Positions 7,814 through 49,447 are shown, counted from the first letter of the stretch. The stretch: DNA of 64,000 bases from an uncultured Eubacteriales bacterium (GCA_964429195.1 CAYSBC010000003.1:729-64728); one strand, 5' to 3'. Translations and numbers: made by a program. Notes: generated from the sequence alone by a model not told the origin.

Positions 7814-7833
7814 TTTTCTATCACCTCTTTCCA

Positions 7834-9585: not shown

Positions 9586-9586
9586 T

Positions 9587-29505: not shown

Positions 29506-30336
29506 TTATTGATCTCCTAAATAAGTTTCAATTTCATCAAAGTAATTTCCTTCTACTGATTCAATTAACCCTTCATCACAGGCTTCCGCAATATGAGGCT
29601 TAATGGGTATCTTTGCTAAAACCTGGGTGTTGTATTCCTTTGCGATTTTATCGATATGGCTTTCACCAAATATTTTATAGGTTTTCTTGCAGTCCTCACA
29701 TGTGAAATAGGACATATTTTCTACTAGGCCTATAATAGGTATCTCCATTAATCTAGCCATTTTTACTGCCTTTTCTACAATCATTGATACTAACTCTTGA
29801 GGTGAGGTTACAATAATAATCCCATCAATTTTTATGGATTGAAATACAGTTAGAGCAACATCTCCCGTGCCCGGTGGCATATCAATGAACATAAAATCAA
29901 TATCACCCCATATAACATCTGTCCAAAATTGTTTAACTGTATTTGCTATAATCGGTCCTCGCCAAACAACGGGGTCTGTCTCATGTTCTAATAATAAATT
30001 GATTGACATCACATCAATGCCCGTTTTGCTTTTAACCGGTAAAAAGCCTTGTTCAGAGCCTGTAACCTTACCTGTTATCCCAAAAGCTTTAGGTATGGAA
30101 GGTCCTGTAATATCAGCATCCAAAATTGCCGTTTTGTATCCTTTCCTGTTCATTTCAACTGCTAGTAGCGAAGTAATTAAAGATTTTCCAACGCCACCTT
30201 TCCCGCTTATAACACCAATTACCTTTTTGATATGGCTTAATTCATGTGGCTTCACCGAAAAATCCGGTTTGTCTTCTTTCCTGCTGTCACAGGTTTCACC
30301 ACATGAACTGCAATTTTCTGTACAATTTTCGCTCAT
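29506..30336 (-). CDS. Mrp/NBP35/ApbC-family P-loop FeS-cluster carrier ATPase
   Basis: Deviant Walker A SGKGGVGKS. Cys-rich N-terminus (CTENCSSCGETC). A CEDC motif later in the protein. Confidence 0.88.
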   Translation of the reverse strand: MSENCTENCSSCGETCDSRKEDKPDFSVKPHELSHIKKVIGVISGKGGVGKSLITSLLAVEMNRKGYKTAILDADITGPSIPKAFGITGKVTGSEQGFLPVKSKTGIDVMSINLLLEHETDPVVWRGPIIANTVKQFWTDVIWGDIDFMFIDMPPGTGDVALTVFQSIKIDGIIIVTSPQELVSMIVEKAVKMARLMEIPIIGLVENMSYFTCEDCKKTYKIFGESHIDKIAKEYNTQVLAKIPIKPHIAEACDEGLIESVEGNYFDEIETYLGDQ

Positions 30337-30348
30337 TATTTTTCTCCC

Positions 30349-30705
30349 TTATGGCTTTGAATGCCATGGACACAGGCGGCAGCGATCACAAAAATCCTTT
30401 TCCGGGCATCTCTTCGAAAGCTCATAATCTCCACCTTCAATTTTTAATATATGCCCACCGACTATTGCTTCAGCTATTTTTTTTCTTGCATCATTATAGG
30501 TTTTTTGAACTGTTGTACGGGCAACTCCCATTCTTTCGGCACATTCTTCTTGCATTAATCCTTCAGCATCAATCAGGCGAACAGTTTCATATTCTTCAAC
30601 TGTCATGATGATGATCTTCGCATCCTTGTATTTGATATGAAGTGGACCGTACATGTTGTTTTCGGGCAGGGAACATACCCTTCTGAATTTTCTCGGTCTA
30701 GGCAT
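30349..30705 (-). CDS. DUF134 (UPF0251) family putative DNA-binding protein
   Basis: Family-typical N-terminus [14 protein letters not shown]-like region ([16 protein letters not shown]). Cys-rich tail. Start set at the ATG at 30705, which has GGGAGG upstream. Confidence 0.8.
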
Positions 30706-30760
30706 ATTCAAAAGTCCTCCCTTATCAAAATAGTTTATAACATATGCCCTTTATAATTCT

Positions 30761-30788
30761 ATTATATCTTTATCATGGCATATGTCAA
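30761..30788 (-). promoter_or_regulatory. sigma-A type promoter for the DUF134-mrp pair
   Basis: Minus strand TTGACA (30783-30788, overlapping the selU stop codon), 16 nt, TATAAT (30761-30766). Confidence 0.7.
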
Positions 30789-31891
30789 TAACTCTCTTTG
30801 TTTTTAAGATAATCTAATACCTCATCTTTATTCCCTTGGTATATAATTCTGTCCTTAACCTTTTGCATCTGAAATTGATACATGGGATCGTAGTATTCCA
30901 CTAATAGTTTCTCTATCCATCGCTTATGCAAATCGTAGCTTCCGGTATGAACTTGTTCCCAATAGGCTTGTTCAAATAAATGACTTATCTCCTTAAAAAA
31001 TTCTCCGCCTAGTCTCTTTTTTATATTCTGGAAGCCATTTCGTATATGATTGGCCCATTCAATCAAAGCTTGTTCTTCTTCAAACAGCTCTTTATAAGAG
31101 CCCTGGGATTCGACAACATACTCCTTTAATGTGATAGCTACCCTTTCTTCTATAGACGCTTCGAGGATGACTAAATCGCTGCTTTTAAAATGAAAAAATA
31201 AGGGCCTGGGCAAAAAACATTTTCCTACGTGTGCACCTTCATCCTCAAGAACCATGTCTTTATAGCCCTTATGCTTATGCTTTATCATGGCATAAGCCAA
31301 ATTGTTTTCAAAGTTTATTTGAGTGGCTTGGGGTGTCACCTGACTCCCAAATGCAGAGCCCCTATGATTCGCAATTCCCTCAAGATCAATAGCATTTTCT
31401 AATTTTTTTAATAAAATAGTCTTTCCCGAGCCCGTACAACCTCCTAACATGATGATATTGCTTTGAAGCTGAGATGGTTCAAGCTCCATCCTTAAATATT
31501 GGCGGAAAGCCTTATAACCTCCTTCAATCCTCATCCTATTTTTTCCTGTTATCTCTTTAATCCATTGTTGCGTGATTTGAGAGCGAAGTCCTCCTCTAAA
31601 ACAATAAACAAGGCTATCAGGATACCTTTTTAGATGATCCGTCCAAGCATTAACCCGAGCCTCTTTTATCTCTCCGCATACCAATTGGTGACCTAATCTT
31701 ACTGCTTCTTCACTTCCCTTTTTCTTATAACATATTCCAACTAAATGTCTTTCTTCATCATTCATCAGCGGCAAATTAACCGTATTTTTAAAAGTCCCTT
31801 TATTAAATTCAAGGGGTGCTCTTACGTCAATTAGAGGCATTTCGTCTATCACAATCTTTTCAAAATCATTCCAAGTTAATTTTTCCATCAT
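30785..31891 (-). CDS. selU: tRNA 2-selenouridine synthase
   Basis: N-terminal rhodanese domain with active-site CFRGGLRSQ, followed by P-loop GGCTGSGKT. 368 aa. Overlaps the selD stop by 4 nt. Confidence 0.9.
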
Positions 31892-32919
31892 ACCACCTTG
31901 ATGAATTTACCAAAGGCCTCGCAAGTTTCCCCAATAGGTTTCAGGGACAGTCCGGCAGCAGCAGTTATCTCTAAAAATTCCGGAATACCTTCTTTTTTAA
32001 CAATCACAAGAAGCCCACCGGAGGTTTGAGCATCACATAAAATATCTCTTTGCTCTTCTGTTAATCCCTCAATAGTGTCTCCATAACTCAAGAAGTTATT
32101 GCGGGTTCCACCAGGTACGCAGTCCATCGCAAGGTATTTCTTGGTATGGGGCAGCAAAGGAATCTTATCAAATTCAACAATAGCTGAGATGCCACTGGCT
32201 TTACAGACCTCCCCCAAATGTCCCAATAATCCAAATCCTGTAATGTCCGTCAATCCGACAACACTGTCTAGGCCCGAAATCTCAGCACCAATTTTATTTA
32301 AAGTTGTCATCGCCTCAATGGCAGGCTCTATATGACCAGGCTCAATCTTTTTCCTTTTTTGAGCAGTCGTCAAGATACCAATACCTAGTGGCTTCGTAAT
32401 AAAAATAGCACACCCGGGAATGGCTTGATTGTTTTGTTTTAATCGGTTATTATCTACAATGCCTGTCACAGCCAGTCCAAAGATAGGCTCCGGAGAATCA
32501 ATAGAATGTCCTCCTGCAAGCGGGATACCTGCTTCATCGCAGATTGAACGCCCACCTTCAATAACCCTTCCCGCAATCTCCGGATCAAGCAGATTAATGG
32601 GCCATCCTAGTATAGATATAGCCATAAGCGGTGTGCCCCCCATGGCATAAATATCACTTATGGCATTGGTAGCCGCAATTTTGCCAAAGGTAAAGGGATC
32701 GTCAACTATCGGCATGAAAAAATCTGTTGTGCTTAAAATAGAGGTTCCATTTCCCAAATCATAAGCCGCCGCATCATCTTTATTGTCATACCCCACTAAA
32801 AGGTTAGGGTAATTCTTTTTATCTCCCGCCTTATTTAATATAAGATCCAATGTAGATGGGGCAATTTTGCATCCACAACCTGCTCCATGACTATATTCTG
32901 TTAATTTTATCTCTTGCAT
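31888..32919 (-). CDS. selD: selenide, water dikinase (selenophosphate synthetase), Cys-type
   Basis: N-terminal [10 protein letters not shown] motif; the first Cys is TGT, not TGA. AIR-synthase-like fold motifs. Start set at MQEIKLTEY (32919), which has AGAGGAAA upstream. Confidence 0.93.
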
Positions 32920-32990
32920 AAAAATATTTCCTCTCTTTTTCAGTATCAAGTCTGCTCATTAATTTTAACATATTTTTTTTAAAAATAACA

Positions 32991-33018
32991 TTGACAATAG
33001 AATAAATAAGGATATAAT
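32991..33018 (+). promoter_or_regulatory. sigma-A type promoter upstream of the ABC-transporter T-box leader
   Basis: TTGACA (32991-32996), 16 nt, TATAAT (33013-33018). Confidence 0.6.
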
Positions 33019-33159
33019 AACAAGTAATTAAAAATAGAAACTGTTGCAGTAGAAATCTACAAAACGAAAATTTGTGATTTCTATGCATAAGTTCGCTAAC
33101 AATTTGTTTCACAAATTGGGCGAGCTGATAAATTGAGAAGAGTACATGCTTTTCGACAA

Positions 33160-33414
33160 TTTTAAACAAATAATGATTCATTGTTTGTTATCCAGAGAGT
33201 TGCAGATGGTGGAATGCAATAATTGTCTTTGTATGGAATGGCCTCATGAAGGTGGTAGGAACGACTTCAAGTCTAGTAATGACCAACGGGATTCCCACTC
33301 GTTACGAAGGGATGCGTATGATTGTACGTCATAGAGTGGATGCTTTCGCATCAATTTAGGTGGTACCGCAGAAGTTTAGCTTTTGTCCTATAGATAGGAT
33401 AAAAGCTTTTTTTA
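33160..33414 (+). promoter_or_regulatory. T-box riboswitch leader, probable Trp (UGG) specifier
   Basis: AGAGAG (33194-33199); GGTGGAA distal loop; specifier context GAA-TGG-C (TGG 33239-33241); stem III GATGCTTTCGCATC; T-box GGTGGTACCGCA (33359-33370). Terminator AGCTTTTGTCCTA/TAGGATAAAAGCT plus T7 (33378-33414). Confidence 0.88.
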
Positions 33415-33448
33415 TTATAAAAATTATATTTAATAGGAGGAATTATTC

Positions 33449-34420
33449 ATGAAAAGAAAATTCAAAATTGTTTCATTCATCATCGTTATGGCCTTATTTG
33501 TCAGCTTAATCTCAGGATGCAGCGATAAAGAAATTCCTGTTATCGGTATTTCTCAATATGGCGAACATGCTTCCCTAGATAACTGCAGGGAAGGCTTCCT
33601 ACAAGGTCTCATGGATTCCGGTTTAGAGGAAGGGAAAGACTTTAATTTAGATTATCAAAATGCAGGCTTTGATGATGCAATCAATACCCAAATAGCTCAA
33701 AGTTTTTCTGCTAATAACGTGGACTTGATGGTTGGTATTGCCACCCCATCAGCTACCGCCCTTTATGCAGCCGCTGAGGATAAGAATATTCCGGTAGTTT
33801 TTACAGCTATTACAGATCCGGTGGAAGCTAAGCTGGATCAAGGCAATGTGACAGGAACAAGTGATAAGCTTCCCGTTAGCGCCCAATTAGAACTTATCCG
33901 CACTTTGCAGCCTGAAGCCACTACCATAGGTATTCTCTATACTACCAGTGAGCCAAACTCTATCTCAGCCATTGCAGAGTATCAAGAAAAAGCCCCTGCA
34001 TACGGCTTCTCTATTGAAGCCATTGGCATTACCATGCAATCCGAGGTGACTCTTGCATTGGATACTCTCATTGCCAAAAATGTTGACTGCTTCTCTAATT
34101 TAACAGATAATAATGTAGTAGGTGTTTTACCTTCTATCTTAGAAAAAACAACGGATGCGGGTATACCGGTTTATGGAAGCGAAGTTGAACAGGTTAAAAA
34201 AGGATGTGTCGCTTCTGCAGGCATTGACTACTATCAACTGGGCATCAGTACAGGGAAGATAGCAGCTCAAATTATTAAAGGAGAGGCTACTGCCGAAGAA
34301 ATACCTTATGAAACCATACAGGAATACCATGTATATGTTAATTCTGAAGCACTTAACGAGATGAACTTAGAGCTTCCTGAGTCTATTTCAAACAATGCAA
34401 TAGAAGTTCATAATATTTAG
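33449..34420 (+). CDS. ABC transporter substrate-binding lipoprotein (ABC_sub_bind/BMP-like; TrpX-like)
   Basis: Lipobox LISGCSD. 323 aa. First gene of a three-gene ABC operon behind a Trp T-box. Confidence 0.8.
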   Translation: MKRKFKIVSFIIVMALFVSLISGCSDKEIPVIGISQYGEHASLDNCREGFLQGLMDSGLEEGKDFNLDYQNAGFDDAINTQIAQSFSANNVDLMVGIATPSATALYAAAEDKNIPVVFTAITDPVEAKLDQGNVTGTSDKLPVSAQLELIRTLQPEATTIGILYTTSEPNSISAIAEYQEKAPAYGFSIEAIGITMQSEVTLALDTLIAKNVDCFSNLTDNNVVGVLPSILEKTTDAGIPVYGSEVEQVKKGCVASAGIDYYQLGISTGKIAAQIIKGEATAEEIPYETIQEYHVYVNSEALNEMNLELPESISNNAIEVHNI

Positions 34421-34439
34421 AACAAGTAGGAGAAATGCA

Positions 34440-35324
34440 ATGAATAACTATCTTGATTTATTTACCAGCACGGTCACTCAAGGTTTGATATACGGTTTAA
34501 TTGCATTCGGCGTCTATATCACTTACAAGATATTAGACTTCCCGGATTTAACGGTGGATGGCAGCTTCCCTTTAGGAGCTGCCATAACCGCAGTTCTGCT
34601 GACCCATCATGTTCATCCCTATTTGACATTATTAATTGCCATTCTTGTTGGAGCCATTGCCGGCTTCATTACCGGCGTCCTTCATGTTAAATTGCACATT
34701 CGGGATTTATTGGCCGGTATCATCACGATGACTGCCTTGTTCTCCATCAACCTTCAAATAGCAGGTTCTAATCTCGTTGTGACCCGAAGTATTCACACTA
34801 TCTTTACTTCAGGTTTTTTGAGTGATGTTCCTCTTATTTATCGGAAATTAATTATCTCTTTGATTCTTGTTCTTGCCATAAAATTCATACTGGATGCTTA
34901 CTTTAAAACAAAAAGTGGACTACTCTTGAGAGCTGTAGGAGATAATAGTTTGGTAGTGACGACGCTAGCTAAAGATAAAGGCACAGTGAAGATTATCGGC
35001 CTTACAATTTCAAATGCTTTGGTCGCCTTATCCGGCGCTATTGTCTGCCATGAACAACGGTCCTTCTCAAGCACCATGGGAACCGGTCAAATGGTTTTTG
35101 CCCTAGCCGCTGTTATTATGGGGACAACCCTCTTCAGAAGACTCGGTTTTGTCAAAGGAACTACTGCGGCCTTAGTTGGCAGTATTGTCTATAAAGCGGC
35201 CATTCAAGTTGCCATTAACCTGGGTTTACCTGCAAATTTATTAAAACTCATGACTTCCATTCTTTTCGTTATCATACTGGTCTATGGTAATTTCCAAAGG
35301 AAAGAGGTGAAAAACAATGCTTGA
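34440..35324 (+). CDS. ABC transporter permease (TrpY-like)
   Basis: 294 aa polytopic membrane protein between the binding-protein and ATPase genes. Confidence 0.8.
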   Translation: MNNYLDLFTSTVTQGLIYGLIAFGVYITYKILDFPDLTVDGSFPLGAAITAVLLTHHVHPYLTLLIAILVGAIAGFITGVLHVKLHIRDLLAGIITMTALFSINLQIAGSNLVVTRSIHTIFTSGFLSDVPLIYRKLIISLILVLAIKFILDAYFKTKSGLLLRAVGDNSLVVTTLAKDKGTVKIIGLTISNALVALSGAIVCHEQRSFSSTMGTGQMVFALAAVIMGTTLFRRLGFVKGTTAALVGSIVYKAAIQVAINLGLPANLLKLMTSILFVIILVYGNFQRKEVKNNA

Positions 35325-36090
35325 ACTCAAAAATATTACAAAAATATATAACCCGGGTACCATTACAGAAATGTGTCTCTTTGACAATTTTAACCTGAAG
35401 GTATCCGATGGAGAATTTTTATCTATTGTAGGAAGCAATGGAAGCGGTAAAACTTCCTTGTTAAATATTATCTGTGGCAATATAGCTATTGAATCCGGTG
35501 AAGTTTTAATTAATCAAGAGAATGTCAATAAACTAAGTGACTTCCAACGCTACAAGAAAATAGGCCGAGTTTACCAAAATCCAGCTATGGGAACCTGTCC
35601 AAGTCTTACCTTACTAGAAAACATGTCTCTTGCCGATAATAAAGGAAAGATTTTTGGTCTTAGTCGCGCTATAAACAAAGCTCGCATAGACTACTATCGA
35701 GATCAATTAGCTACTCTAGGATTAGGCTTGGAGGATAAATTAAATGTTAAGCTTTCCAACCTCTCAGGTGGTCAACGTCAGGCTGTTGCCTTGATTATGT
35801 CCACATTGACACCCATTGAATTTCTTATTCTTGATGAGCACACGGCAGCTCTGGATCCTAAAACTGCTGAAACCATTATGGTATTAACCGATAAAATCGT
35901 GAAAGAAAAACAATTAACAGCAATCATGGTCACACATAATCTTCGCTATGCTGCAAATTATGGTAATCGTTTAATCATGATGAACAAAGGTGATATTGTA
36001 TTAGAGCGTTCCGGAGAACAAAAGATCGCTACTTCTGTTGATGACATCCTGCATGTTTTCACAGAAATTAGTATTGAGTGCGGCAATTAA
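35317..36090 (+). CDS. ABC transporter ATP-binding protein (TrpZ-like)
   Basis: Walker A GSNGSGKTS, signature LSGGQRQ, Walker B LILDEHTAALD. Confidence 0.92.
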   Translation: MLELKNITKIYNPGTITEMCLFDNFNLKVSDGEFLSIVGSNGSGKTSLLNIICGNIAIESGEVLINQENVNKLSDFQRYKKIGRVYQNPAMGTCPSLTLLENMSLADNKGKIFGLSRAINKARIDYYRDQLATLGLGLEDKLNVKLSNLSGGQRQAVALIMSTLTPIEFLILDEHTAALDPKTAETIMVLTDKIVKEKQLTAIMVTHNLRYAANYGNRLIMMNKGDIVLERSGEQKIATSVDDILHVFTEISIECGN

Positions 36091-36524
36091 TCCCTTTTTC
36101 TTTTCAGGAGTTGTTTAACTTGAGCCTCTAGCACAAGAGTACCATCTTGGTTGCTTACAGTGAGTTGGATCTTTAAGACACCTTGTCTGCTTTTCGATGA
36201 GGAAATCATATCTAATATTTCTACTTCACCTGTTAATACGTCATTGGGGTAAACAGGAGCGGTCCAACGAAGGGAATCCATGCTTAACCCTGCGATGACT
36301 TCTGTTCCTGTTTTGTTCAATCGAGTCCACTGACCCCATACGAGGCATAAAGTGTGAAAACCCGAAGCTATAATGCCCTTGAACATACTTTCCTCAGCAG
36401 CTTCTTTATCAAGATGGAGATACAGCGTATCATACTTGGATGCAAACTCCTCTATTTCTTCTAAGGATACACTCACAGGATTCAAGTCAAACTTCTGCCC
36501 TATTTCAAATTCTTCAAAATACAT
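36087..36524 (-). CDS. MaoC-like (R)-hydratase / hotdog-fold protein
   Basis: MYFEEFEIGQKF start with GGGGAGG 9 nt upstream. GIIASGFHT motif. The ORF-track N-terminal extension to 36608 has no RBS support. Confidence 0.8.
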   Translation of the reverse strand: MYFEEFEIGQKFDLNPVSVSLEEIEEFASKYDTLYLHLDKEAAEESMFKGIIASGFHTLCLVWGQWTRLNKTGTEVIAGLSMDSLRWTAPVYPNDVLTGEVEILDMISSSKSRQGVLKIQLTVSNQDGTLVLEAQVKQLLKRKRD

Positions 36525-36670
36525 AAATGGATACCTCCCCAATTTTAAGTTATTTTTTATAATAGCATAATTCAACTCATAATTATAGGGCTGCCCATAA
36601 GAATTCATAAATCCCCCATGGCGCAGCCCCTTAAAGTAAATTTAAATTAAGATTAATTGATGGCTATAGG

Positions 36671-38584
36671 CTATAAACCCATCTTTTCTCTTTTACTCAA
36701 AATATGAGCTTCAATATCTTTGGCAACTTGAACGGGATCATCGCCTAGCGCTACCTTCCCGCCTGTTAGCCCTTCCACATCTTCTGTAAGAAGTTTTACA
36801 AGATTAGGAGCCCCTGTAATAAATGGTGTCGGTGACAAATGGGTATAGGCCCCATAAGCTACAGTAAACAACCCATCAATGGTTGCCTTTTGTTCCATCC
36901 ATTCCGGTGCAGTGACAGCAATCGGCAGATCGGATATATCTGCATCGAGATGATCTGCCAAAGCAGTAACAAGCATAGATATTCTTCCCGTATCTGTGCA
37001 GGTCCCAAAGCTTAGAACAGGAGGAATGCCTAAGGCTTTACATACTCCTTTTAGTCCGTCCCCTGCTAACTCTATGGCATCTAAATTACACATTCCTGCC
37101 ACTTCCAGTCCATGATTACCACAACCACCTGCTACAACTAATATATCCTTTTTGATGAACTCTTTCGTAAGATTCACCGTGTTCCAATCTTGTGGACCAT
37201 TTCTCAAAGTAGAACAGCTTGCCAAAGCCACGATGCCTTTTATCTGTCCCTTTGCTAGGACATCCACCAAGACATTCAAGTCATTACCAATTGCTTTTAA
37301 AACAGCCTCCGTAGAAAAACCTGCAATGGCTTTTGTCTTATGATGGGGAACCATAGGTTTAATAACCCCGTGTCTCTTTTGGAAGTTATCAATAGCAATA
37401 TTAATGCAACTTTCTGCCATTTCATCCACTTTAGAAGGATAATAAGGCATCTCGTGCTCTGTTCCCGGCACACCGATAATCGTACTTACACTCACAAGAG
37501 CAAATTGATATTTTTCAGCATATTGATCCATAGCAGGAGGGGAACAATTTTCTTCGATAACCAAGGCATCCACAGTACCTGTTGCCAAGAAAGGTTCAAT
37601 CGCCAACCAATTTCCCATGAGCCCCACAAAAACATCGTCTACTTCAAATCTTTGTAACAACTCTTGTCCGGTCTCTATGGAACCGACAATGCGAATACCC
37701 TTTGCTCCTGCTTTTTTTGCCCGCTCTTGATAATCTTGTTTTCTAGCTTTTTGTAAGGCTGCTACGCCAACCCAGGGTTGATGTCCATTAAAAACAATAT
37801 TGACGTAATCAGGATCCATAATTCCCATATCCACATCCACTTCATGGGGCATAGGTGTTCCAAAGAGGATATCCTGAGTCATTTCTAAACCGATTTGTGC
37901 AGTGTAAATGGTAGATATACCTAACCGCAGTGCTTTCTTAGCCAAGGAAATATAATCACCATCAACATTTGTCAAGCAGCTGGCAATACAATTCTCCACC
38001 TCGTGTTGCACTCCTGAAGGGTACAGATTCAATTCTTGCCATAAGGATTTTCTCTTTTTGGGGGCAAAAGCCTCCATCATCATGCTTTTCTGGTCAGGGT
38101 TAATCTTCATCTCTTTATCTAAGAGTTCCGCCAATTGTATTGCTAATTGATTCACATCCTGTTTTGTATCGATGCCTACTTTTTCACACATCCATTTTAA
38201 CTTATCGGTATCCGTAATTTTAAAAGGTGTTTTCCCTTCTCCCGTAGCCTTGAGTGTTCTAAAAGCTTCAAAAGCATGATGTCCATAGGTTGCTGCTCCC
38301 ATAATGTTCCTCATGAGCAAACTCCTCATGGCCATGGCATCAGCATCTATACCGCAGACACCCTTGTCTGCACCTGCCTTGTCACTTATTCTGCATGGTC
38401 CATGGGTGCAAAGTTGGCAGCTGAGTCCTTGAAGGCAAAATTTACAGCGAATTTTCTCTTGGGCCTCCCATCTTGAAAATACGCTTGAAAGACCATCCTC
38501 CTTTATTCTTTTCAGCATTTCTTCTACGGAATCATGGTAGCTTACACGACCTTCTGTTCTCTCTAAAATAGTATCTGTCATCAT
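36671..38584 (-). CDS. CooS-family (anaerobic Ni-CODH scaffold) protein with a non-canonical active-site motif
   Basis: N-terminal Cys pattern CKFCLQGLSCQLCTHGPCRI and later SFGTCTDTGRI are CooS-like. Where I expect G-x-C-C-T-G-N-E, the sequence reads G-S-I-E-T-G-Q-E. Start set at MMTDTIL (38584), which has AAGGAGA upstream. Confidence 0.75.
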   Translation of the reverse strand: MMTDTILERTEGRVSYHDSVEEMLKRIKEDGLSSVFSRWEAQEKIRCKFCLQGLSCQLCTHGPCRISDKAGADKGVCGIDADAMAMRSLLMRNIMGAATYGHHAFEAFRTLKATGEGKTPFKITDTDKLKWMCEKVGIDTKQDVNQLAIQLAELLDKEMKINPDQKSMMMEAFAPKKRKSLWQELNLYPSGVQHEVENCIASCLTNVDGDYISLAKKALRLGISTIYTAQIGLEMTQDILFGTPMPHEVDVDMGIMDPDYVNIVFNGHQPWVGVAALQKARKQDYQERAKKAGAKGIRIVGSIETGQELLQRFEVDDVFVGLMGNWLAIEPFLATGTVDALVIEENCSPPAMDQYAEKYQFALVSVSTIIGVPGTEHEMPYYPSKVDEMAESCINIAIDNFQKRHGVIKPMVPHHKTKAIAGFSTEAVLKAIGNDLNVLVDVLAKGQIKGIVALASCSTLRNGPQDWNTVNLTKEFIKKDILVVAGGCGNHGLEVAGMCNLDAIELAGDGLKGVCKALGIPPVLSFGTCTDTGRISMLVTALADHLDADISDLPIAVTAPEWMEQKATIDGLFTVAYGAYTHLSPTPFITGAPNLVKLLTEDVEGLTGGKVALGDDPVQVAKDIEAHILSKREKMGL

Positions 38585-38671
38585 CCTATTCTCCTTTTTC
38601 AATGGTTTCCAAAAATCCACATTTTGAATAGTATGACCAGAATCATCCATTTCAATGCTAAGAATTGTACC

Positions 38672-41852: not shown

Positions 41853-42085
41853 AGTAAACATTCAACAATTTTATCGTGTTTAAAGTGATGCTTCTTCAAA
41901 AACTCCTCAAGAACATTTCTTTGTTCAAGACTTCCTTTCCAAGCCAACCCACATCCTGCTGAAATAGTAGGCGGTAAAGGAATGATGCGTCCTTTTAAGC
42001 CTTCCATTTTAGCAGTCTCTTCAAAGCCCATAGCTTCTGTCGTGGCTTGGAAGGTAATAAGCAAATACCTTTCTTTTTGTCTCAT
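41849..42085 (-). CDS. DUF3343 (putative Se/S carrier-like) protein
   Basis: 78 aa from MRQKERYLLITF. Conserved ISAGCGLAW Cys motif. Its ATG overlaps the stop of the upstream desulfurase gene (ATGA). Confidence 0.75.
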   Translation of the reverse strand: MRQKERYLLITFQATTEAMGFEETAKMEGLKGRIIPLPPTISAGCGLAWKGSLEQRNVLEEFLKKHHFKHDKIVECLL

Positions 42086-43224
42086 CGATTTTCTCCTTCC
42101 AATACCCATAGAGCATGTATAGCCTCATCAATGTCATCTACCCTATTAAAATGGGAAAAACTAAAACGCACCATGCCCTGTTCTAGAGTCCCAAATGCCC
42201 TGTGAACTTCCGGAGCGCAATGAGCTCCCCCACGGGTTGCTATTCCAAAACGCTGAAATAATTCATCCGCTAAAAAACCGGAATGTACATCTCTTAGATT
42301 AAGTGTAACGATAGGTGTTCTCACATCAGCATCATAATCCCCATACAAGATGATGCCGGGTAAATCTTTCACCCCATCCAAAAATTTTTTCGCAAGAAAG
42401 CTTGCTTCTTGAAATATCTTGTCTTGTCCAACTTCATTGAGATAATCGCAGGCTGCAGAGAGTCCGGCAATACCATGAGTATTAAGTGTACCTGCCTCAA
42501 GTGCCTCCGGTAAAAACCTTGGCATCTCATGGGAAAAACTATCTCCACCGGTTCCGCCCACCTTAAGGGGATTTGGCATCACTCCATCAGCTAAACATAA
42601 GATACCTGTGCCTTGAGGCCCCAGCATACTTTTGTGCCCTGAACAACAAAGTGCTGAAATGCCACTTTCCTCTAAATGAATAGGTAGAAGCCCTGCTGTC
42701 TGAGAAGCATCTAGAATAAGTAACAAATTATGCTTTTTACATAGCTTGCCGACTCCCTCTAAATCTTGGACATTGCCTATGACATTGGAGGCATGATTCA
42801 TGATCACAGCCTTCGTTTCCGGGCATATTTCTGCCTCAATAGCACATGTCTGAACATACCCTTTGCTATTGGCAGGAACAGTTGTCACCTTAACACCCTG
42901 CTTTTCCATAAGATAAAGAGGTCTTAATACACTATTATGTTCCAAAGATGTGGTTATACAATGGTCCCCTTCCTGAAGAAGACCCTGAATAGCAATATTT
43001 AAACTTTCTGTTGCATTGAAAGTGAAGACAACACGAGAACAATCATCCATGCGAAAAAAATCAGCAATTTTTTTCCTTGTTTGGTATACCATGCGACTTG
43101 CCTCAAGAGATACACCATGGGCCCCACGCCCACTATTGCCGGATCCCTTTAGGGCATGGCATACCGCTTCTATCACAGCCTCCGGCTTATGAAAAGAGGT
43201 TGCTGCATGATCTAAGTAAATCAT
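42082..43224 (-). CDS. class-V aminotransferase: cysteine desulfurase / selenocysteine lyase family (NifS-like)
   Basis: 380 aa. MIYLDHAATS start, PLP-lysine context SGHKSMLGPQG, C-terminal GGAHCAP active-site Cys loop. Confidence 0.85.
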   Translation of the reverse strand: MIYLDHAATSFHKPEAVIEAVCHALKGSGNSGRGAHGVSLEASRMVYQTRKKIADFFRMDDCSRVVFTFNATESLNIAIQGLLQEGDHCITTSLEHNSVLRPLYLMEKQGVKVTTVPANSKGYVQTCAIEAEICPETKAVIMNHASNVIGNVQDLEGVGKLCKKHNLLLILDASQTAGLLPIHLEESGISALCCSGHKSMLGPQGTGILCLADGVMPNPLKVGGTGGDSFSHEMPRFLPEALEAGTLNTHGIAGLSAACDYLNEVGQDKIFQEASFLAKKFLDGVKDLPGIILYGDYDADVRTPIVTLNLRDVHSGFLADELFQRFGIATRGGAHCAPEVHRAFGTLEQGMVRFSFSHFNRVDDIDEAIHALWVLEGENR

Positions 43225-43240
43225 ATTTTTCCCTTCCCAT

Positions 43241-43630
43241 TTATGGATTTATAATTTTAATAGCATTCATTTGCTTTTCAGCAATTGTATACATGTTCGT
43301 AACAGTTCCTACTTCTAAAGAATGAGTTAATTGATAATAGTTTAAACAGGTGCCACAAGTTAGTATCTGCACACCTTGAGATTCTAAAAGCTTTAAATCC
43401 TCTAAAGAATCCGACCCTTTTGTCGCCAAATAGGCTCCACTGTTGTATAGTAGAATTGTTTTAGGCAAATATTCTTGTTCTGTTAGCGCATAAATAAAAT
43501 TTTTCAAAAGGGTTCGCCCTAATTTCTCGTCACCTTCTCCCATTTTATCGGAAGATAAAACAACAACCGTATTATCCATAAGACCCCTTCTTTCTATAAC
43601 TGTATCATCCTTTAAAATATGTTTATCCAT
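43241..43630 (-). CDS. YedF-like selenium-metabolism protein, C-terminal (DsrE-like, CGXC) domain only
   Basis: 129 aa. VVVLSSDKMGEGDEKLGRTLLKNF and a redox-type CGTC motif. No TusA/SirA-like N-terminal domain is encoded. An alternative start at MDNTVVV is possible. Confidence 0.65.
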   Translation of the reverse strand: MDKHILKDDTVIERRGLMDNTVVVLSSDKMGEGDEKLGRTLLKNFIYALTEQEYLPKTILLYNSGAYLATKGSDSLEDLKLLESQGVQILTCGTCLNYYQLTHSLEVGTVTNMYTIAEKQMNAIKIINP

Positions 43631-44348
43631 TTTCTGCTCCTTCTCTATGCTTTTTTTTAACCTTGATTGCGCAGCCTATGCCTATAATGATTCCATGTAT
43701 AATATAAAGTATAGCTAACACGACTAGGGTTAAGTTTCCTATTTTATGGATGGCTATGAAAGAGATAATGCCCCCTATAAAATAAAGAAAAATCGAAATA
43801 CCATAAAAGCGTAGCTTCCAAAGTTGTTCCCAATCCCCTTTTATTATCGCAACCAGACTATAGGCTGCATCGGTAATATAACCTGTCATATGCGTTGTTC
43901 TCACTAAAACACTGTTGATTCTGATACATGTGCCATTCTGAATTCCCATACCTAAAGCTAGAACAGAAAGAGTTGCAGCCTTACTATTAAAACCTTTATA
44001 AATAACCAGCAAACTTATGCCGAATAGAATCGGCATAAGACCATGATTCTTGCACAGATCTGATTCATTCCTATGAAAAAGAAATCTTGCAATGACAGAT
44101 CCTAGAAAAAACAATATAATATAAGCCAATAGCTTGCCGAGAATGAATAGTTGTCCACTTCCCAGAGCAACAGCTGCATGACTGATATTTCCTGTATAAT
44201 GTGTGATGGAGATTCCAAACAAGACTAAGGCACAAATATTAATTGCACCTGCCAGAAAGGTAAGACTTCCAATCCAGGCAAAGTAAAAATTTTTTCTTAA
44301 AATGCTATTCGTTTTGTCTCTTAACAATATCCATAATGTCCCCTTCAA
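43623..44348 (-). CDS. YoaK/DUF1275-family membrane protein
   Basis: 241 aa, about 6-7 TM. TTHMTGYITD motif is typical of DUF1275. Probable TTG start after GGAGGG. Confidence 0.65.
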   Translation of the reverse strand: MKGTLWILLRDKTNSILRKNFYFAWIGSLTFLAGAINICALVLFGISITHYTGNISHAAVALGSGQLFILGKLLAYIILFFLGSVIARFLFHRNESDLCKNHGLMPILFGISLLVIYKGFNSKAATLSVLALGMGIQNGTCIRINSVLVRTTHMTGYITDAAYSLVAIIKGDWEQLWKLRFYGISIFLYFIGGIISFIAIHKIGNLTLVVLAILYIIHGIIIGIGCAIKVKKKHREGAENG

Positions 44349-44366
44349 ATGTCACCCTCCTACTAA

Positions 44367-45173
44367 TCAACGTAACTTATTGCGCGACTTTGCAAGCAAA
44401 TATCTCTTTTTGTATTTGAGACTGGCATATTCACCAATCTTGTTAATGATGTTAAAATTGGCCACACTGCCAATGACTCCGACAATGGCAAATCCCTGAA
44501 TAAATTTCGTCGTCAACATGGCTTCAGATAGCACCTTGGATGTTTGTTCCATGCGTTCTTTCAGATTAACTTCTGTTTTTATCTTGCGATCTATCTGCTC
44601 CCCAAGCCTGTCAATTTCTTCATTATATCCCTTTTGTTCTTCCCCTTTTGATAAGGAACCGCTGAGAATGAGAAGAATATAGGCTTTTTCTTCATCGCTA
44701 TCATAATCATAGCCATAACCTAGTGCGACTTCATAAATAGATTTCATAATCATTGCTATAAAAACGGGAATATCCGGTAGCCCTACACCCAAAAGTCCTA
44801 AAACGCCTCCCTCTATAAAAGATAATGAAGAATTGCGAAAGAGTGAACTATTAGCTTGTTTATCGATCCTCTTAATATTTCTCTTATCTATCCTCTTATC
44901 GATTGCATAATTATTTAAGTCATACTCCAGTTGAATATTCTTTTTATTATAAGTCTTTTCTATATAAGGATTACCCTTTTCAAAAACGACTTGAAAACCT
45001 TTTAGAAAAGCACTCTCAAGTACTCCTATTAGCTTATCCGGTATCTTTTCTTGTATTTTATCTTTAATAGGAGAAATTTTTTTGCTAATAAATTTGTTTT
45101 CTTTTTTATTGAGAATTTTATCTTCTCTTTTATGGAGTTTTTTAAACTGCTTATTTAATTCTCGATCCATCAT
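44367..45173 (-). CDS. EcsC-family protein
   Basis: 268 aa. Lys-rich N-terminus followed by an EcsC-like core. The family assignment is from overall resemblance only. Confidence 0.55.
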   Translation of the reverse strand: MMDRELNKQFKKLHKREDKILNKKENKFISKKISPIKDKIQEKIPDKLIGVLESAFLKGFQVVFEKGNPYIEKTYNKKNIQLEYDLNNYAIDKRIDKRNIKRIDKQANSSLFRNSSLSFIEGGVLGLLGVGLPDIPVFIAMIMKSIYEVALGYGYDYDSDEEKAYILLILSGSLSKGEEQKGYNEEIDRLGEQIDRKIKTEVNLKERMEQTSKVLSEAMLTTKFIQGFAIVGVIGSVANFNIINKIGEYASLKYKKRYLLAKSRNKLR

Positions 45174-45246
45174 TCACCTCTAAATTTAATTGCCATCCCT
45201 TTGCTTTAGCGTTATTTTTATTATACACTATTACCCAATATCCTAC

Positions 45247-45296
45247 CTAAAAAAAGCTGACCCGTCATAGAATCCACATTCTATTATGAGGCAGCT
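45247..45296 (-). terminator. terminator after tRNA-Sec
   Basis: Imperfect 19-position stem (15 pairs) AGCTG..CATAGAAT / ATTCTAT..CAGCT with loop CCAC, followed by T7 on the minus strand. Confidence 0.6.
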
Positions 45297-45309
45297 CTCT
45301 TTTTAGTCT

Positions 45310-45406
45310 TGGCGGGAGCATGTGGGAATCGAACCCACCCAAGGGGTCCTTAACCCCTCGAACCGATTTTGAAGACCGGCGATAACACCAGCTACCATCT
45401 ACTCCC
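45310..45406 (-). tRNA. selC: tRNA-Sec (anticodon UCA)
   Basis: Minus-strand read: GGGAGTAGATGGTAGCTGGTGTTATCGCCGGTCTTCAAAATCGGTTCGAGGGGTTAAGGACCCCTTGGGTGGGTTCGATTCCCACATGCTCCCGCCA. Anticodon loop is CT-TCA-AA. Long variable arm (GAGGGGTT..GACCCCTT), GGTTCGATTCC T-arm, encoded CCA. About 97 nt. Sits 33 nt downstream of selB. Confidence 0.93.
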
Positions 45407-45439
45407 AAATAACTTGTTTTAATTATAATACACCTTATG

Positions 45440-47338
45440 CTAATTTGTAAATAAAACTCTCCAATCTTCTTTCTTTATTGTTATCTTTTGTTCATCGAAA
45501 TATTCTAACAGGGGTAAGGCATATTTTCTTGAAGTTTCTAATAAATCGCGAAATTGCCCCAGTGTAATCGATTCATTTTCTCGAATAAATGACTTGATCT
45601 CCGATAAGGCCTTTTCATAAAAAAAACGATGTAAATAAATATTGGAATCGATTTTTATTAAGATTCCTTCCTTCACCAAATCTTGTATGATTTGCATCAC
45701 CTCTTGGGGATCTTGAAAAGACTTGGCTACATCTGTGATAAAGGGAACCATCCATCCCCCTTGATAATATGTCTCTTCTACCTGCCCTTTTATTTTCTTC
45801 TGTTCTTCTGTATAGCTTTTTTTAAAAGCAGACAAAGCAACCCTTTCATCTTGTATGATAATCTTCCCTGCTGTGTGAAAATATTTCAGTATGGAGTCCG
45901 CCCATTTATTCTTGCCTTTAAATAGTCTGTTGCGACATTCTTCTAAACTCATTCCTAGTCTAAGAGAATTTTCTTCATGATACTCTTTTAATATTGTTTC
46001 AAGATTGGTTTCTAATGCACGGAGAATGGTATGATGAAAGGCTAAATCTTTTGTTATCATTATGACTTTCTTTTCCTTAACCAACTGCTCTATACACTTC
46101 TCTGCTTGTGTGCCTTCTTTCCCCAATTGTTTCACAATAGAGCTTAAAGGTTTAAAGGTAAGACTATATTTCTTTATAAAGATTTCTAGGATGTCTTTTT
46201 CCGAACCGGTTTCTAACAATTTCAGTTCTTCTATAGCTACTTTATCATAGGGTTTATGTTTTTTAGGATTGGCATCCAGTACAATGCCACCCCCTATGGT
46301 TTCCACCGGAGAATAAAATCTTATCACAAAATAATCACCTTTTTTAGCGGCAATCTTTTCCTCTAATCGTACTTGGGCATAGCAACTTTCACCGGCTTTT
46401 ATAAGCTCTTTATTGAGTATCATGACACGACATAATACTTGGCTTGTACCGTGATAAAGAGAGACTCTTGTATTGTTTTTGAGCTCCCTATCGGTATTTT
46501 TTAAAAGATCTAATCTTACATCGAGCATGCTTGTCTCTTCCATTGAATCTTTTTCCGCTAAAACATAGCCTCTTTGAATCTCATCTTTTTTAATATTTGC
46601 TAAATTAAGAGCTACCCTCTGACCCGCAAAGGACCCTTGTGCCTTTTCACCATAGACCTGTATATTTCTTATTTTAGCAGATTGACCGGTTGGATAAACC
46701 ATCACTTCATCGCCACTTTTTAAACTTCCTTCTGTCTGTGTACCTGTAACAACTGTACCGAATCCGTCTATAGTAAATAGCCTATCTATAGGGAGTCGAA
46801 AAGGTGTATTGTTGCTTTTCACCCTAATATCCTGTGTCATCTTAATAATTGCTTCTTTTAATGTTTCGATTCCTTCGCCATGAACAGAGGATACAGGAAT
46901 AAGAGGTGCATTTTCAAGAAAAGTACCCCTGATCTCCTCTTTGACTTCTTCCTCCACCATTTGCAACCATTCATCATCAACAATATCTTTTTTGGTCAAC
47001 ACAACAAGGCCATGTTGAATATGGAGTATAGATAATATATCAAGGTGTTCTCTAGTTTGGGGCATAACGCCTTCATTTGCCGCTATAACCATGAGAACTA
47101 TGTCTATTCCACCGATACCTGCCAGCATATTCTTTATAAATTTTTCATGACCCGGAACATCAATAATACCAGCCTTTTCGCCATTAGGGAGGTCAAAGAA
47201 TGTAAATCCTAATTCGATTGTAATGCCGCGTTTCATCTCTTCCTTAAGATGATCTGTTTCCCTGCCCGTTAACGCCTTGATTAAGGATGTTTTACCATGA
47301 TCAATATGTCCTGCTGTTCCAATGATAATACTCTTCAT
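45440..47338 (-). CDS. selB: selenocysteine-specific translation elongation factor
   Basis: G-domain AGHIDHGKTSL, DVPGHEKF, TKKD. Long C-terminal winged-helix extension. Start set at MKSIIIGTAGH (47338), 10 nt after the selA stop. Confidence 0.93.
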   Translation of the reverse strand: MKSIIIGTAGHIDHGKTSLIKALTGRETDHLKEEMKRGITIELGFTFFDLPNGEKAGIIDVPGHEKFIKNMLAGIGGIDIVLMVIAANEGVMPQTREHLDILSILHIQHGLVVLTKKDIVDDEWLQMVEEEVKEEIRGTFLENAPLIPVSSVHGEGIETLKEAIIKMTQDIRVKSNNTPFRLPIDRLFTIDGFGTVVTGTQTEGSLKSGDEVMVYPTGQSAKIRNIQVYGEKAQGSFAGQRVALNLANIKKDEIQRGYVLAEKDSMEETSMLDVRLDLLKNTDRELKNNTRVSLYHGTSQVLCRVMILNKELIKAGESCYAQVRLEEKIAAKKGDYFVIRFYSPVETIGGGIVLDANPKKHKPYDKVAIEELKLLETGSEKDILEIFIKKYSLTFKPLSSIVKQLGKEGTQAEKCIEQLVKEKKVIMITKDLAFHHTILRALETNLETILKEYHEENSLRLGMSLEECRNRLFKGKNKWADSILKYFHTAGKIIIQDERVALSAFKKSYTEEQKKIKGQVEETYYQGGWMVPFITDVAKSFQDPQEVMQIIQDLVKEGILIKIDSNIYLHRFFYEKALSEIKSFIRENESITLGQFRDLLETSRKYALPLLEYFDEQKITIKKEDWRVLFTN

Positions 47339-47348
47339 GACTTTATCC

Positions 47349-48764
47349 CTACACTTTTTGTATACTATCAATCGCCCGGATAAGATAAGGTAATGCCTCT
47401 TCTTCAATAGTCCTGCAATCTAAGAGGATAGCACCCCTATGAATACGTGCAATAATGGGAATAGATTGATTTCTTAAACTTCCTTCAAAGTCATTAACAC
47501 TTTTTAACAGAGGCTTTATTTGTATCAAAAAGCTGGGCAATTCATGTAATGGCAAGGAACCACCACCTATTTGAGAAAAGCCTTCTACTAAAGACACCTC
47601 CATATTTTCGAAATGCTGAAGTGCACTCCATATTTTAAATGCTTTTTCCCTTATTTCTTTCTTATCCATGGTCATCATCTTGAGTGTCGGAATTTTTTCA
47701 AGTGGAGCTCCCGAAAAATATATTTGCAGAGTTGCCTCAAGTGCCGCTAAAGTTAATTTATCAACTCTAAAGGCTCTGGCGAGTGGATTTTCTTTCATCT
47801 TTTCTATCCAATCTTTTCTCCCAATGATGATACCCGCTTGAGGTCCTCCCAATAATTTATCTCCGCTAAAACAAATGATATCCGCACCCGTTTCCACACT
47901 TTCTTTAATGGTCGGTTCATCAACAATGCCATATTCTTTAAGGTCCATTAAGCATCCGCTACCCAAATCATGAATGACAGGAATGTTGTAGGTCTTACCC
48001 ATGGCAGCTAATTCCTTTAGACCCACCTCCTCAGTAAAGCCTAAAATCCTGTAATTGCTTGTATGTATTTTTAGGAAAGCTCCTGTATTTTCAGCATCTA
48101 TTACTTTCATATAATCACTTAGATGTGTTTTATTGGTAGTCCCCACTTCTTTTAATCTGGTTCCACTTTGACTCATAATCTCAGGAATTCTGAATGACCC
48201 TCCAATTTCTACAAGCTCACCTCGGGATACGATAACTTCTTTATCCTTTGCCAGTGTATTCAGTATGAGCATGATGGCTGCTGCATTGTTATTGACGACA
48301 AATGCTGCTTCCGTTCCGGTAAGTTTTGTTAGCATTTTTTCTATAGGATCATAGCGTGAGCCTCTTTTCCCTTGATCTATATCATATTCGAGATTGGAAT
48401 AATGACCTGCTATATCAAAAATATGCTCTTTTATTTCATCAGCTAATAGCGCACGGCCAAGATTGGTATGCAATATAATCCCAGTTGCGTTGATAACCTT
48501 TCTTAAGCCCCATTGCTTTCTTTCTTCTATTTCAAAAACGATTTCATCTAATAAATCCTGCCGATTGAAGATGTTCTCCGAAACCATGCCCTCTGATATA
48601 GCGGATAACATCTTGTTTCGCACTTTTTCTATTTGGTCACGGATAATATCAGTCATTCTCTTGCGTGATATTTGATCATGATAGAATTTGATTTTCTCAT
48701 CCATGAGTATTTCATCAACCTTGGGTAATTGTCTCAACCATTCTTTTTTATCCATTTTTATCAC
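47349..48764 (-). CDS. selA: L-seryl-tRNA(Sec) selenium transferase
   Basis: 471 aa. PLP-lysine motif FSGDKLLGGPQAG and SRGELVEIGGSFRIPE. Confidence 0.93.
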   Translation of the reverse strand: MIKMDKKEWLRQLPKVDEILMDEKIKFYHDQISRKRMTDIIRDQIEKVRNKMLSAISEGMVSENIFNRQDLLDEIVFEIEERKQWGLRKVINATGIILHTNLGRALLADEIKEHIFDIAGHYSNLEYDIDQGKRGSRYDPIEKMLTKLTGTEAAFVVNNNAAAIMLILNTLAKDKEVIVSRGELVEIGGSFRIPEIMSQSGTRLKEVGTTNKTHLSDYMKVIDAENTGAFLKIHTSNYRILGFTEEVGLKELAAMGKTYNIPVIHDLGSGCLMDLKEYGIVDEPTIKESVETGADIICFSGDKLLGGPQAGIIIGRKDWIEKMKENPLARAFRVDKLTLAALEATLQIYFSGAPLEKIPTLKMMTMDKKEIREKAFKIWSALQHFENMEVSLVEGFSQIGGGSLPLHELPSFLIQIKPLLKSVNDFEGSLRNQSIPIIARIHRGAILLDCRTIEEEALPYLIRAIDSIQKV

Positions 48765-48790
48765 TCCATTTGTGAACTCGCATCCATCTT

Positions 48791-48822
48791 AATAAAAACC
48801 CTCTCTTTTGGTCCAAGAGAGG
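48791..48822 (-). terminator. rho-independent terminator between the HesB-like genes and selA
   Basis: Minus strand CCTCTCTT-GGACCAA-AAGAGAGG followed by GTTTTTATT. It ends only about 27 nt before the selA start codon. Confidence 0.75.
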
Positions 48823-48854
48823 ATTTCAAACTTTAACAAGAATCTAGATAGGTA

Positions 48855-49133
48855 TCATACTGTGACTGTAAAGCCTTTATTAAACCAACCTTTGGAGTAA
48901 TCAATGTTCAAATTTCCAAAATGATCTAACAAATCCTTTTCAACTAGAATCTCTATATCGTCAATTTTTTCAACAACGTCTTTTTCCTCATCCTTTGTCT
49001 TGTCCAAGACAATCCCAAAACTGGGACCACCTCACCCAAAAGATTGGAATACAATTCTGACGAAGCTCTTTTCATTATTCTCAAAGTACTTATTCAGTTC
49101 TTCTTTTGCTTTTATTGATAGACTTATACCCAT
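48855..49133 (-). CDS. HesB/IscA-like selenoprotein, copy 1 (92 codons, in-frame TGA at codon 34 = 49032-49034)
   Basis: Not in the ORF track. Minus-strand translation: MGISLSIKAKEELNKYFENNEKSFVRIVFQSFG-U-GGPSFGIVLDKTKDEEKDVVEKIDDIEILVEKDLLDHFGNLNIDYSKGWFNKGFTVTV. AAAGGAGGA RBS 8 nt upstream. Protein-level conservation with copy 2 continues past the TGA. Confidence 0.85.
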
Positions 49134-49150
49134 TATACACCATCCTCCTT

Positions 49151-49447
49151 TCAAGAATTTTGAGCACGAATACCAAATGTAACTAAAAAACCTTTATTGA
49201 ACCAACGTAAATAATCAATTTTCAAATTCCCAAAACGATTTTTTAAGTCTTTTTCAACGATTATCTCTATATCGTCAATTTTTTCAACGTAATCCTTTTC
49301 TTCATTCTTTGTCTTAACCAAGACAACCCCAAAGATGGGACCGATTCATCCAAAAGAGAGTAATACAATTCTGGCCATGTTCGTTTCATCATTCTTAAAT
49401 CGCTTATATAATTCTTCTCGCGCTTTTTTTGTTAGGATTATACTCAT
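49151..49447 (-). CDS. HesB/IscA-like selenoprotein, copy 2 (98 codons, in-frame TGA at codon 34 = 49346-49348)
   Basis: Not in the ORF track. Translation: MSIILTKKAREELYKRFKNDETNMARIVLLSFG-U-IGPIFGVVLVKTKNEEKDYVEKIDDIEIIVEKDLKNRFGNLKIDYLRWFNKGFLVTFGIRAQNS. GAGGGAGGGTGG RBS. Same TGA position as copy 1. Confidence 0.85.

Follow-up and report, generated by a model that had tools for sequence, protein, structure and literature searches.

A selenium gene island of known kind, with lineage-specific rearrangements and unrelated passengers, in a Peptostreptococcales genome

Positions 29506-49447 of a 64,000-nucleotide stretch of DNA (hereafter the window), taken from a Peptostreptococcales metagenome-assembled genome (MAG), hold genes for selenium utilization alongside several iron-sulfur (FeS) and redox genes. 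We find it to be an ordinary island of selenium genes, of a kind already known, that has been rearranged in its lineage and includes unrelated passengers. Very probably it is a lineage-specific mosaic, in which four known selenium modules have been juxtaposed and interleaved with functionally unrelated transcription units. An earlier reading of the DNA (the sequence-only reading) had instead proposed that the co-localization reflects a pathway of selenium delivery, or of joint selenium and FeS handling, broader than the textbook selABCD set.

Four selenium units cluster beyond chance

We analysed the window by listing its open reading frames (ORFs) and by profile searches, and compared it with 16 selenium-anchored loci (L082-L097). 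Between flanks of unrelated housekeeping genes, four independent selenium units fall inside 18.7 kb: selD-selU, yedF-nifS-DUF3343, selA-selB-selC, and a pair of HesB-like selenoprotein genes carrying selenocysteine (Sec) codons. Their features are as follows.

30785-31891, minus strand: SelU/MnmH, tRNA 2-selenouridine synthase (NF008751, 491 bits, cutoff 361)
31888-32949, minus strand: SelD, selenide water dikinase, Cys form with motif GAGCGCK (NF002098, 514 bits, cutoff 299)
41849-42109, minus strand: DUF3343 (Se_S_carrier), with its Cys in SAGCGLAW (PF11823, 70.8 bits, gathering score 25)
42082-43224, minus strand: NifS-like class V pyridoxal phosphate (PLP) enzyme of the EF2568/SclA subfamily (TIGR01977, 405.5 bits, cutoff 377)
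43241-43630, minus strand: YedF, C-terminal DsrE-like domain only (TIGR03527, 150.2 bits, cutoff 110)
45310-45406, minus strand: selC, tRNA-Sec with anticodon TCA (ARAGORN; Rfam RF01852, 71.4 bits, gathering score 47)
45440-47407, minus strand: SelB, Sec-specific elongation factor (TIGR00475, 387 bits)
47349-48764, minus strand: SelA, Sec synthase (TIGR00474, 600 bits)
48855-49133, minus strand: HesB-like selenoprotein 2 (HesB2), Sec codon at 49032-49034, U-G-G-P, no Cys
49151-49447, minus strand: HesB-like selenoprotein 1 (HesB1), Sec codon at 49346-49348, U-I-G-P, no Cys

Every gene listed by the sequence-only reading is present and correctly identified, at the position claimed for it and on one strand (minus). 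Eight interleaved genes were absent from that list, including the three genes of an ATP-binding cassette (ABC) importer and a FAD/Rieske oxidoreductase gene on the plus strand, and MaoC, DUF1275 and EcsC genes on the minus strand.

Could the co-localization be pure chance, even for the selenium genes? Selenium loci do vary widely: selA-selB stands alone in L088, L091 and L092, where the YedF trio was not found (selD is also absent from L088 and L092), and selD-selU stands alone in L093 and L094. Against this, our own rough estimate of the chance of finding the four units so close together, assuming a genome of ~3 Mb, is 4 x (18.7/3000)^3 = ~1e-6, and similar combinations occur in published genomes and in three of the loci compared here. 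Youngiibacter (L082) holds selD-yedF-nifS-DUF3343 together; L089, a 2.97-Mb genome with a 58%-identical SelA, has the order selA-selB-selD-activase-HGD-D-yedF-DUF3343-nifS; and in L090 selA-selB, selD and nifS-yedF-DUF3343 all lie at one locus. Pure chance is thus extremely improbable. Because of this estimate and the recurrence of module subsets in other Clostridia, the selenium part of the clustering is genuine and exceeds chance.

The wider arrangement is kept solely in one close relative, represented by two short contigs from sample ERR13731081. The order in L097, whose SelA is 78% identical, is HesB1-HesB2-selA-selB-tRNA-Sec-EcsC, and that in L095, a locus anchored on a close YedF relative, is EcsC-DUF1275-YedF(129 aa)-NifS. 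Outside this close lineage selA-selB is the sole constant, the two genes being adjacent in 6/6 SelA-anchored loci. Conservation of the neighbourhood, on which the sequence-only reading had staked its proposal, therefore holds in part: subsets of the selenium modules recur in Clostridia, and the full arrangement is found only in the close relative.

Two selenium traits are encoded by modules of different histories

The Sec-decoding trait is complete, with selA, selB, selC and selD all present above curated thresholds and two HesB-like genes in which an in-frame UGA is followed by a Sec insertion sequence (SECIS) hairpin. Just upstream of selC lies a promoter-like site matching the consensus at 11/12 positions (45451..45422). 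The 2-selenouridine trait is represented by SelU, which has both the rhodanese Cys (CFRGGLRS) and the P-loop (GGCTGSGKT). That two selenium traits are encoded, as had been claimed, is borne out by genes above their cutoffs; the description of these as both known traits is out of date. A 2022 review adds a third, the Se-cofactor trait (YqeB/YqeC; PMC9312934), and a further selenium route into small molecules was reported in a 2022 preprint.

The end of selD overlaps the start of selU by 4 nt. The two genes also overlap in L093 and L094, the loci of the closest SelU homologs, where the pair forms a bare selD-selU operon, and the arrangement is that of the known selD-selU (ybbB/mnmH) two-gene operon. 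The loci differ in what accompanies the pair: a stand-alone DsrE-like YedF homolog precedes selD in L093 and L094, whereas in the window the DsrE-like gene is 10 kb away, with the NifS-like and DUF3343 genes. SelD shares 80% identity with the SelDs linked to SelU in L093 and L094, which come from distant Firmicutes, but only 37-42% with the SelDs that lie beside selA-selB or yedF in other Clostridia. This pattern of identity suggests that the selD-selU unit has an evolutionary origin distinct from that of selA-selB. The YedF C-terminal domain (77% identical) and the NifS-like protein (62%) both have their closest relative in Youngiibacter, and SelA and SelB have theirs in other taxa, at 52-59% identity outside their own lineage. 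Because the nearest relatives differ from module to module, the island appears to have been assembled from modules of different histories.

A tandem pair of divergent HesB-like selenoproteins lies upstream of selA

Both HesB-like genes carry an in-frame TGA within U-x-G-P, the motif that marks the family of HesB-like selenoproteins in the literature (PMC13188914; Zhang et al., 2006, PMC1794560). Since six normal genes in the window end at TGA as an ordinary stop, the code in use is the standard one, and we read the TGAs within these two frames as encoding Sec. An alignment of four genes reveals a hairpin of 7 bp, placed 22 nt downstream of the UGA, with a loop that starts with GG and two compensatory pairs. 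Folding of the single sequences gave z-scores of about -1 for the SECIS regions, which is not significant, so the case for a SECIS hairpin is made by the alignment and not by single-sequence folding.

With U replaced by C, the best-scoring families for both proteins are TIGR01911 and NF038090, yet the scores (37.9 and 44.6 bits for HesB1, 55.7 and 65.5 bits for HesB2) do not reach the curated cutoffs (66.35 and 85), and the proteins are thus divergent. They are paralogs, 67% identical to each other. In L097, HesB2 has an ortholog that is 84% identical and keeps the TGA, and the HesB1 ortholog is a fragment; tandem pairs of the TGA type are found both at this locus (1-420) and in L096 (2268-3078). 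The window pair shares with the family a ~95-aa fold like that of A-type carriers, Sec at the first IscA cysteine position and the downstream SECIS hairpin. The two proteins depart from it in being encoded in tandem directly upstream of selA, in scoring below the cutoffs and in having lost the C-terminal Cys. As neither contains any Cys at all, they cannot bind a cluster in the three-Cys manner of A-type carriers.

A whole-library HMMER search with the C-terminal part retrieved homologs of two kinds, fragments of 50-61 aa that start after the TGA and proteins of 96-109 aa with ‘W’ at the Sec position. We considered whether Trp is the ancestral residue there and rejected this, as the DNA of one such homolog (P0380, in L096) has an in-frame stop at the ‘W’ position. 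Its tandem neighbour, a second gene of this type, has a stop at the same position, and for P0380 a database look-up reported that translation does not yield the listed protein. The ‘W’ of the database together with the in-frame stop implies that TGA was read under genetic code 4. None of the 13 full-length homologs retrieved has a Cys form at the Sec position. In public records the HesB-like selenoproteins are split into ‘hypothetical’ fragments of 50 and 56 aa.

Most of the full-length homologs retrieved end in a C-terminal Cys, which is absent from both window copies and from the L097 orthologs. In HesB1 (49151-49200), a 2-nt deletion turns ‘TGT TAA’ into ‘TGA’ at the Cys codon; in HesB2 (48855-48900), a 1-nt insertion leaves a ‘DSC*’ tail out of frame, and the L097 remnant reads ‘DSY*’. 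Because the L097 orthologs share the loss and the same HesB protein fragments are recorded from three contigs (of 23 kb, 42 kb and the present 72 kb), this loss is probably genuine rather than an artefact of assembly. HesB1 ends at a TGA that aligns with the C-terminal Cys codon of the family; that this TGA might be a second Sec codon replacing this Cys was rejected, since the L097 ortholog ends in TAA after ...GIRAKE.

Between HesB2 and selA is a hairpin followed by a T run, resembling an intrinsic terminator. As a side observation, L088 and L089 (1000-9900; SelA 58-59% identical) have a complete glycine/betaine reductase (grd) operon directly upstream of selA, including the GrdB gene and a GrdA gene called as two pieces. 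This position parallels that of the HesB-like selenoprotein genes in the window.

No TGA-interrupted gene was found in the window beyond the two HesB-like genes, besides one spurious match in a T-box leader. Elsewhere in the window (4292-10132, minus strand), NuoF-like and NuoE-like genes precede a gene for a 1180-aa fusion of 2Fe-2S, GltD-like flavoprotein, 4Fe-4S and molybdopterin-oxidoreductase (formate-dehydrogenase-like) domains. Its ORF has no in-frame TGA, and the protein is thus not the Sec-containing form.

The YedF, NifS-like and DUF3343 trio follows a known pattern with a truncated YedF

Lin et al. (2015; PMC5322559) linked YedF, a Sec-lyase family and DUF3343 to selD and put forward a selenium-trafficking model (reviewed in PMC9312934). 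YedF is almost confined to selD-positive genomes, and DUF3343 is found in selD-positive and selD-negative genomes alike (Lin et al., 2015; PMC5322559). The name ‘selenium metabolism protein YedF’ is already in use for the NCBI family. The association of YedF, SclA-like enzymes and DUF3343 with selenium is thus not new, having been known since 2008-2015. Among the loci compared, yedF neighbours the NifS-like gene in L082, L089, L090 and L095, and DUF3343 adjoins YedF and/or the NifS-like gene in L082, L085, L089 and L090.

Among the closest published parallels is the Shel_25300-25460 cluster of Slackia heliotrinireducens (PMC5322559), which shares SelA, SelB, SelD, YedF, a class V enzyme of the Sec-lyase family and DUF3343 with the window. 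The roles proposed for such published clusters and for the window are the same, namely selenium mobilization, redox handling and trafficking to SelD. Slackia has YedE, a LysR_Se regulator and an activase/HGD-D pair (the pair is also present in L089), all of which the window island lacks. The window differs further in that its YedF is without TusA/SirA, selU and two HesB-like selenoprotein genes are added, and unrelated genes are interleaved.

The NifS-like protein has a PLP-binding Lys in SGHK and a catalytic Cys in GAHCAP. Its second-best family is the characterised selenocysteine lyase SclA (NF040779), at 373 bits, below the exception-level cutoff of 525. We regard it as a putative SclA-like selenocysteine lyase/desulfurase. 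Used as a query in a metagenome scan, the protein gave a single, irrelevant match at 25% identity.

The YedF match is limited to positions 83-194 of the 194 in TIGR03527. The CGTC motif described for YedF (PMC5322559) is present (LTCGTCLNYY), and the TusA/SirA domain with its CPxP motif is absent, so that the protein lacks the two-domain architecture. By comparison, nearly all of the 120 best YedF homologs are ~205 aa long and two-domain, with PF01206. A hidden, TGA-interrupted TusA domain upstream of yedF was considered and rejected, the frame being full of stops, and a hidden Markov model (HMM) built from 114 YedF N-termini found no TusA domain in any frame of the 64-kb window. Compared with L095, the shortened gene has a dN/dS of 0.15, which indicates purifying selection; its product is for this reason probably functional. 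A 111-aa stand-alone DsrE-like homolog that keeps CGTC, with no Pfam hit recorded, lies directly upstream of selD-selU in L093 (5539-5874) and L094 (4163-4498); this domain can therefore be found by itself at selenium loci.

Between selC and yedF are two further genes, which the PF06912/PF12787 pair of profiles covers.

43623-44348, minus strand: DUF1275/YoaK membrane protein
44367-45173, minus strand: EcsC

The DUF1275 gene is immediately upstream of the truncated yedF and, with the start as annotated, overlaps it by 8 nt. We weighed the idea that DUF1275, and perhaps EcsC, are lineage-specific selenium accessories, the membrane protein replacing YedE and the lost TusA domain. This idea draws on the position of DUF1275, on the order EcsC-DUF1275-YedFc-NifS in L095 and selC-EcsC in L097, on purifying selection (dN/dS 0.21 for DUF1275, alongside that on YedFc), and on the analogy with the membrane protein YedE, which is paired with YedF in E. 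coli and other bacteria (PMC5322559). The arrangement is nevertheless limited to one narrow lineage (78-84% identity), in which synteny is expected anyway; neither gene occurs at any other YedF, SelA or SelU locus; and the stand-alone DsrE-like homologs of L093 and L094 have no DUF1275 partner. We therefore consider a selenium function for these two genes quite unlikely, and describe them as lineage-specific neighbours of the selenium genes.

The FeS and redox genes are judged to be passengers

The remaining genes of the region, with CysK at its edge, are as follows.

28328-29272, minus strand: CysK
29506-30336, minus strand: Mrp/NBP35
30349-30711, minus strand: DUF134
33119-33393, plus strand: T-box leader (RF00230, 84.5 bits, E 3e-17, below the gathering score of 93)
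33449-36090, plus strand: three-gene TrpX-like ABC importer (NF041285 TrpX, 237 bits, below the cutoff of 390)
36087-36608, minus strand: MaoC-like
36671-38650, minus strand: CooS, CODH-V-type (TIGR01702, 863 bits; best PDB match 7b7q, 847 bits)
38672-40144, minus strand: SelO/YdiU, an uninterrupted ORF
40365-41852, plus strand: FAD(DAO)+Rieske oxidoreductase

None of the genes for Mrp, DUF134, CooS, SelO, MaoC or the ABC substrate-binding and permease proteins was found at the selenium-anchored loci (0/16), and the ABC ATPase matches there are generic only, at 25-28% identity. DUF134-Mrp has, in addition, a promoter of its own, a perfect 12/12 sigma-70-type site (TTGACA-16-TATAAT; 30788..30761, minus strand) that lies in the 73-nt gap after selU, overlaps the last selU codons and is placed to drive both genes, which are 12 nt apart. 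They are not next to selD-selU in L093 or L094, the two closest SelU loci, and a literature search for DUF134 together with Mrp gave nothing relevant. We judge DUF134-Mrp to be a separate transcription unit and a passenger. Against the MrpORP profile (NF041136), Mrp scores 343 bits, below the cutoff of 450, and matches only profile positions 1-232 of 365, the P-loop part. By its profile match, then, it is classed as a generic P-loop protein of the Mrp/NBP35/ApbC type and not as MrpORP.

The sequence-only reading had described a deviant CooS. The deviation is real: where canonical carbon monoxide dehydrogenase (CODH) reads GMCCTGN, the window protein reads GSIETGQ, so that Cys295 (CODH-II numbering) is replaced by Glu, as in 7b7q, and the C-cluster ligand is missing, with His259 conserved. 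It belongs to a known class, however, one with no link to selenium. The full-length 847-bit match to Carboxydothermus hydrogenoformans CODH-V (PDB 7b7q, clade D) and the shared Glu295 identify the protein, by its sequence, as CODH-V-type. CODH-V has a hybrid-type Fe-S-O cluster, with neither a C-cluster nor CODH activity, and the class has been discussed in connection with stress response (PMC10502027; bioRxiv 10.1101/2025.09.14.676152). The window gene is flanked by SelO and MaoC, with the FAD/Rieske gene nearby. That gene is the only conserved neighbour of CooS: in Clostridium magnum (L036, 2187-5892) a 72%-identical CooS is directly followed by a FAD(DAO)+Rieske homolog, which suggests a CODH-V/flavo-Rieske redox pair.

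SelO is a selenium gene in name only. It has no Sec codon, ends in ...TFCGT, and bacterial SelO is named by NCBIfam as a protein adenylyltransferase. We surveyed the 80 closest homologs (64-71% identity), mostly from Bacillus, Paenibacillus, Brevibacillus and related genera, and 0/80 have a selenium gene (selD, selA, yedF or others) within 10 kb. The ABC importer, in turn, is preceded by a T-box leader in whose specifier loop the conserved GAA is followed by the triplet UGG. Because of this triplet and the TrpX-like binding protein, it is probably a tryptophan-responsive amino-acid importer.

These results bear on the proposal that the whole 20 kb is one selenium/FeS pathway, with Mrp, DUF134, CooS, SelO and the HesB-like proteins cooperating with SelD, SelA and the desulfurase. 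Proximity on one strand speaks for it, as do the short gaps (73 nt for selU-DUF134, 12 nt for DUF134-Mrp) and the membership of the HesB-like proteins in the A-type carrier superfamily. Yet DUF134-Mrp has its own perfect promoter; Mrp, DUF134, CooS and SelO are missing from every other selenium locus examined; SelO homologs occur in genomes and loci without selenium genes; CooS is of a class with neither a C-cluster nor CODH activity; and the Cys-free HesB-like proteins of the window are unable to hold a cluster as three-Cys A-type carriers do. Such a pathway is therefore very unlikely. The status of the interleaved genes as passengers of the mosaic follows from the promoter of DUF134-Mrp, the T-box leader, the CODH-V signature and the absence from the 16 loci, and the 80 SelO homologs argue likewise.

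Several points weigh against the mosaic interpretation. We detected no terminator between selU and DUF134, so that read-through from selU into DUF134-Mrp is possible, which also favours the single-pathway proposal. The operon structure used here is a prediction made solely by gene spacing and by scanning for consensus sites. Few loci were compared: six anchored on SelA, those of two species anchored on YedF, two anchored on SelU, and L095. The genome itself is a MAG, and its nearest sampled relative is known from short contigs only. Finally, the gene order is kept in that close relative (L095, L097), which leaves room for a role of DUF1275 or EcsC.

Discussion

Our data are consistent with a model, following the one already published, in which the four modules would serve a shared flow of selenium. 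We observe what the genes are, which motifs they carry, that the in-frame TGAs are accompanied by a conserved hairpin, and how the genes are conserved; the steps of the selenium hand-off we infer. The SclA-like PLP enzyme would strip selenium from free selenocysteine or another Se donor, and DUF3343, with its single conserved Cys, and YedF's DsrE-like domain, with its CGTC motif, would carry or reduce it. SelD would then make selenophosphate. SelA would use this step's product in converting Ser-tRNA-Sec to Sec-tRNA-Sec, which SelB would take to UGA codons followed by a SECIS hairpin, for example those in the two HesB-like mRNAs encoded next door. SelU would use the same selenophosphate to form 2-selenouridine in tRNA. 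On this view DUF134-Mrp, the ABC importer under T-box control, MaoC, CooS of the CODH-V type, SelO and FAD/Rieske would be passengers without a selenium role.

A bolder version, in which the hand-off has been remodelled in this lineage, seems unlikely to us. Here a DsrE-only YedF and DUF1275 would stand in place of YedE/TusA, the Cys-free tandem HesB-like proteins, encoded upstream of selA, would act as selenium carriers, buffers or sensors and not as Fe-S carriers, and the DsrE-like domain, not TusA, would be the SelD-linked core of YedF, as the stand-alone homolog in front of selD-selU in L093 and L094 would then indicate.

The idea of a pathway broader than selABCD thus survives for YedF, the SclA-like enzyme and DUF3343, which recur near selD or selA-selB in L082, L089 and L090, and fails for Mrp, DUF134, CooS and SelO. 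Taken at face value, the sequence-only reading would have newly tied selenium trafficking to the biogenesis of Fe-S clusters, a connection that the evidence does not support. The practical value of the region lies elsewhere, in that it reveals a mis-split annotation of HesB-like selenoproteins and a false ‘Trp’ at UxGP that stems from a read-through stop. Its natural variants, a YedF lacking TusA and HesB-like proteins that have lost the C-terminal Cys, could help to dissect the parts of selenium delivery.

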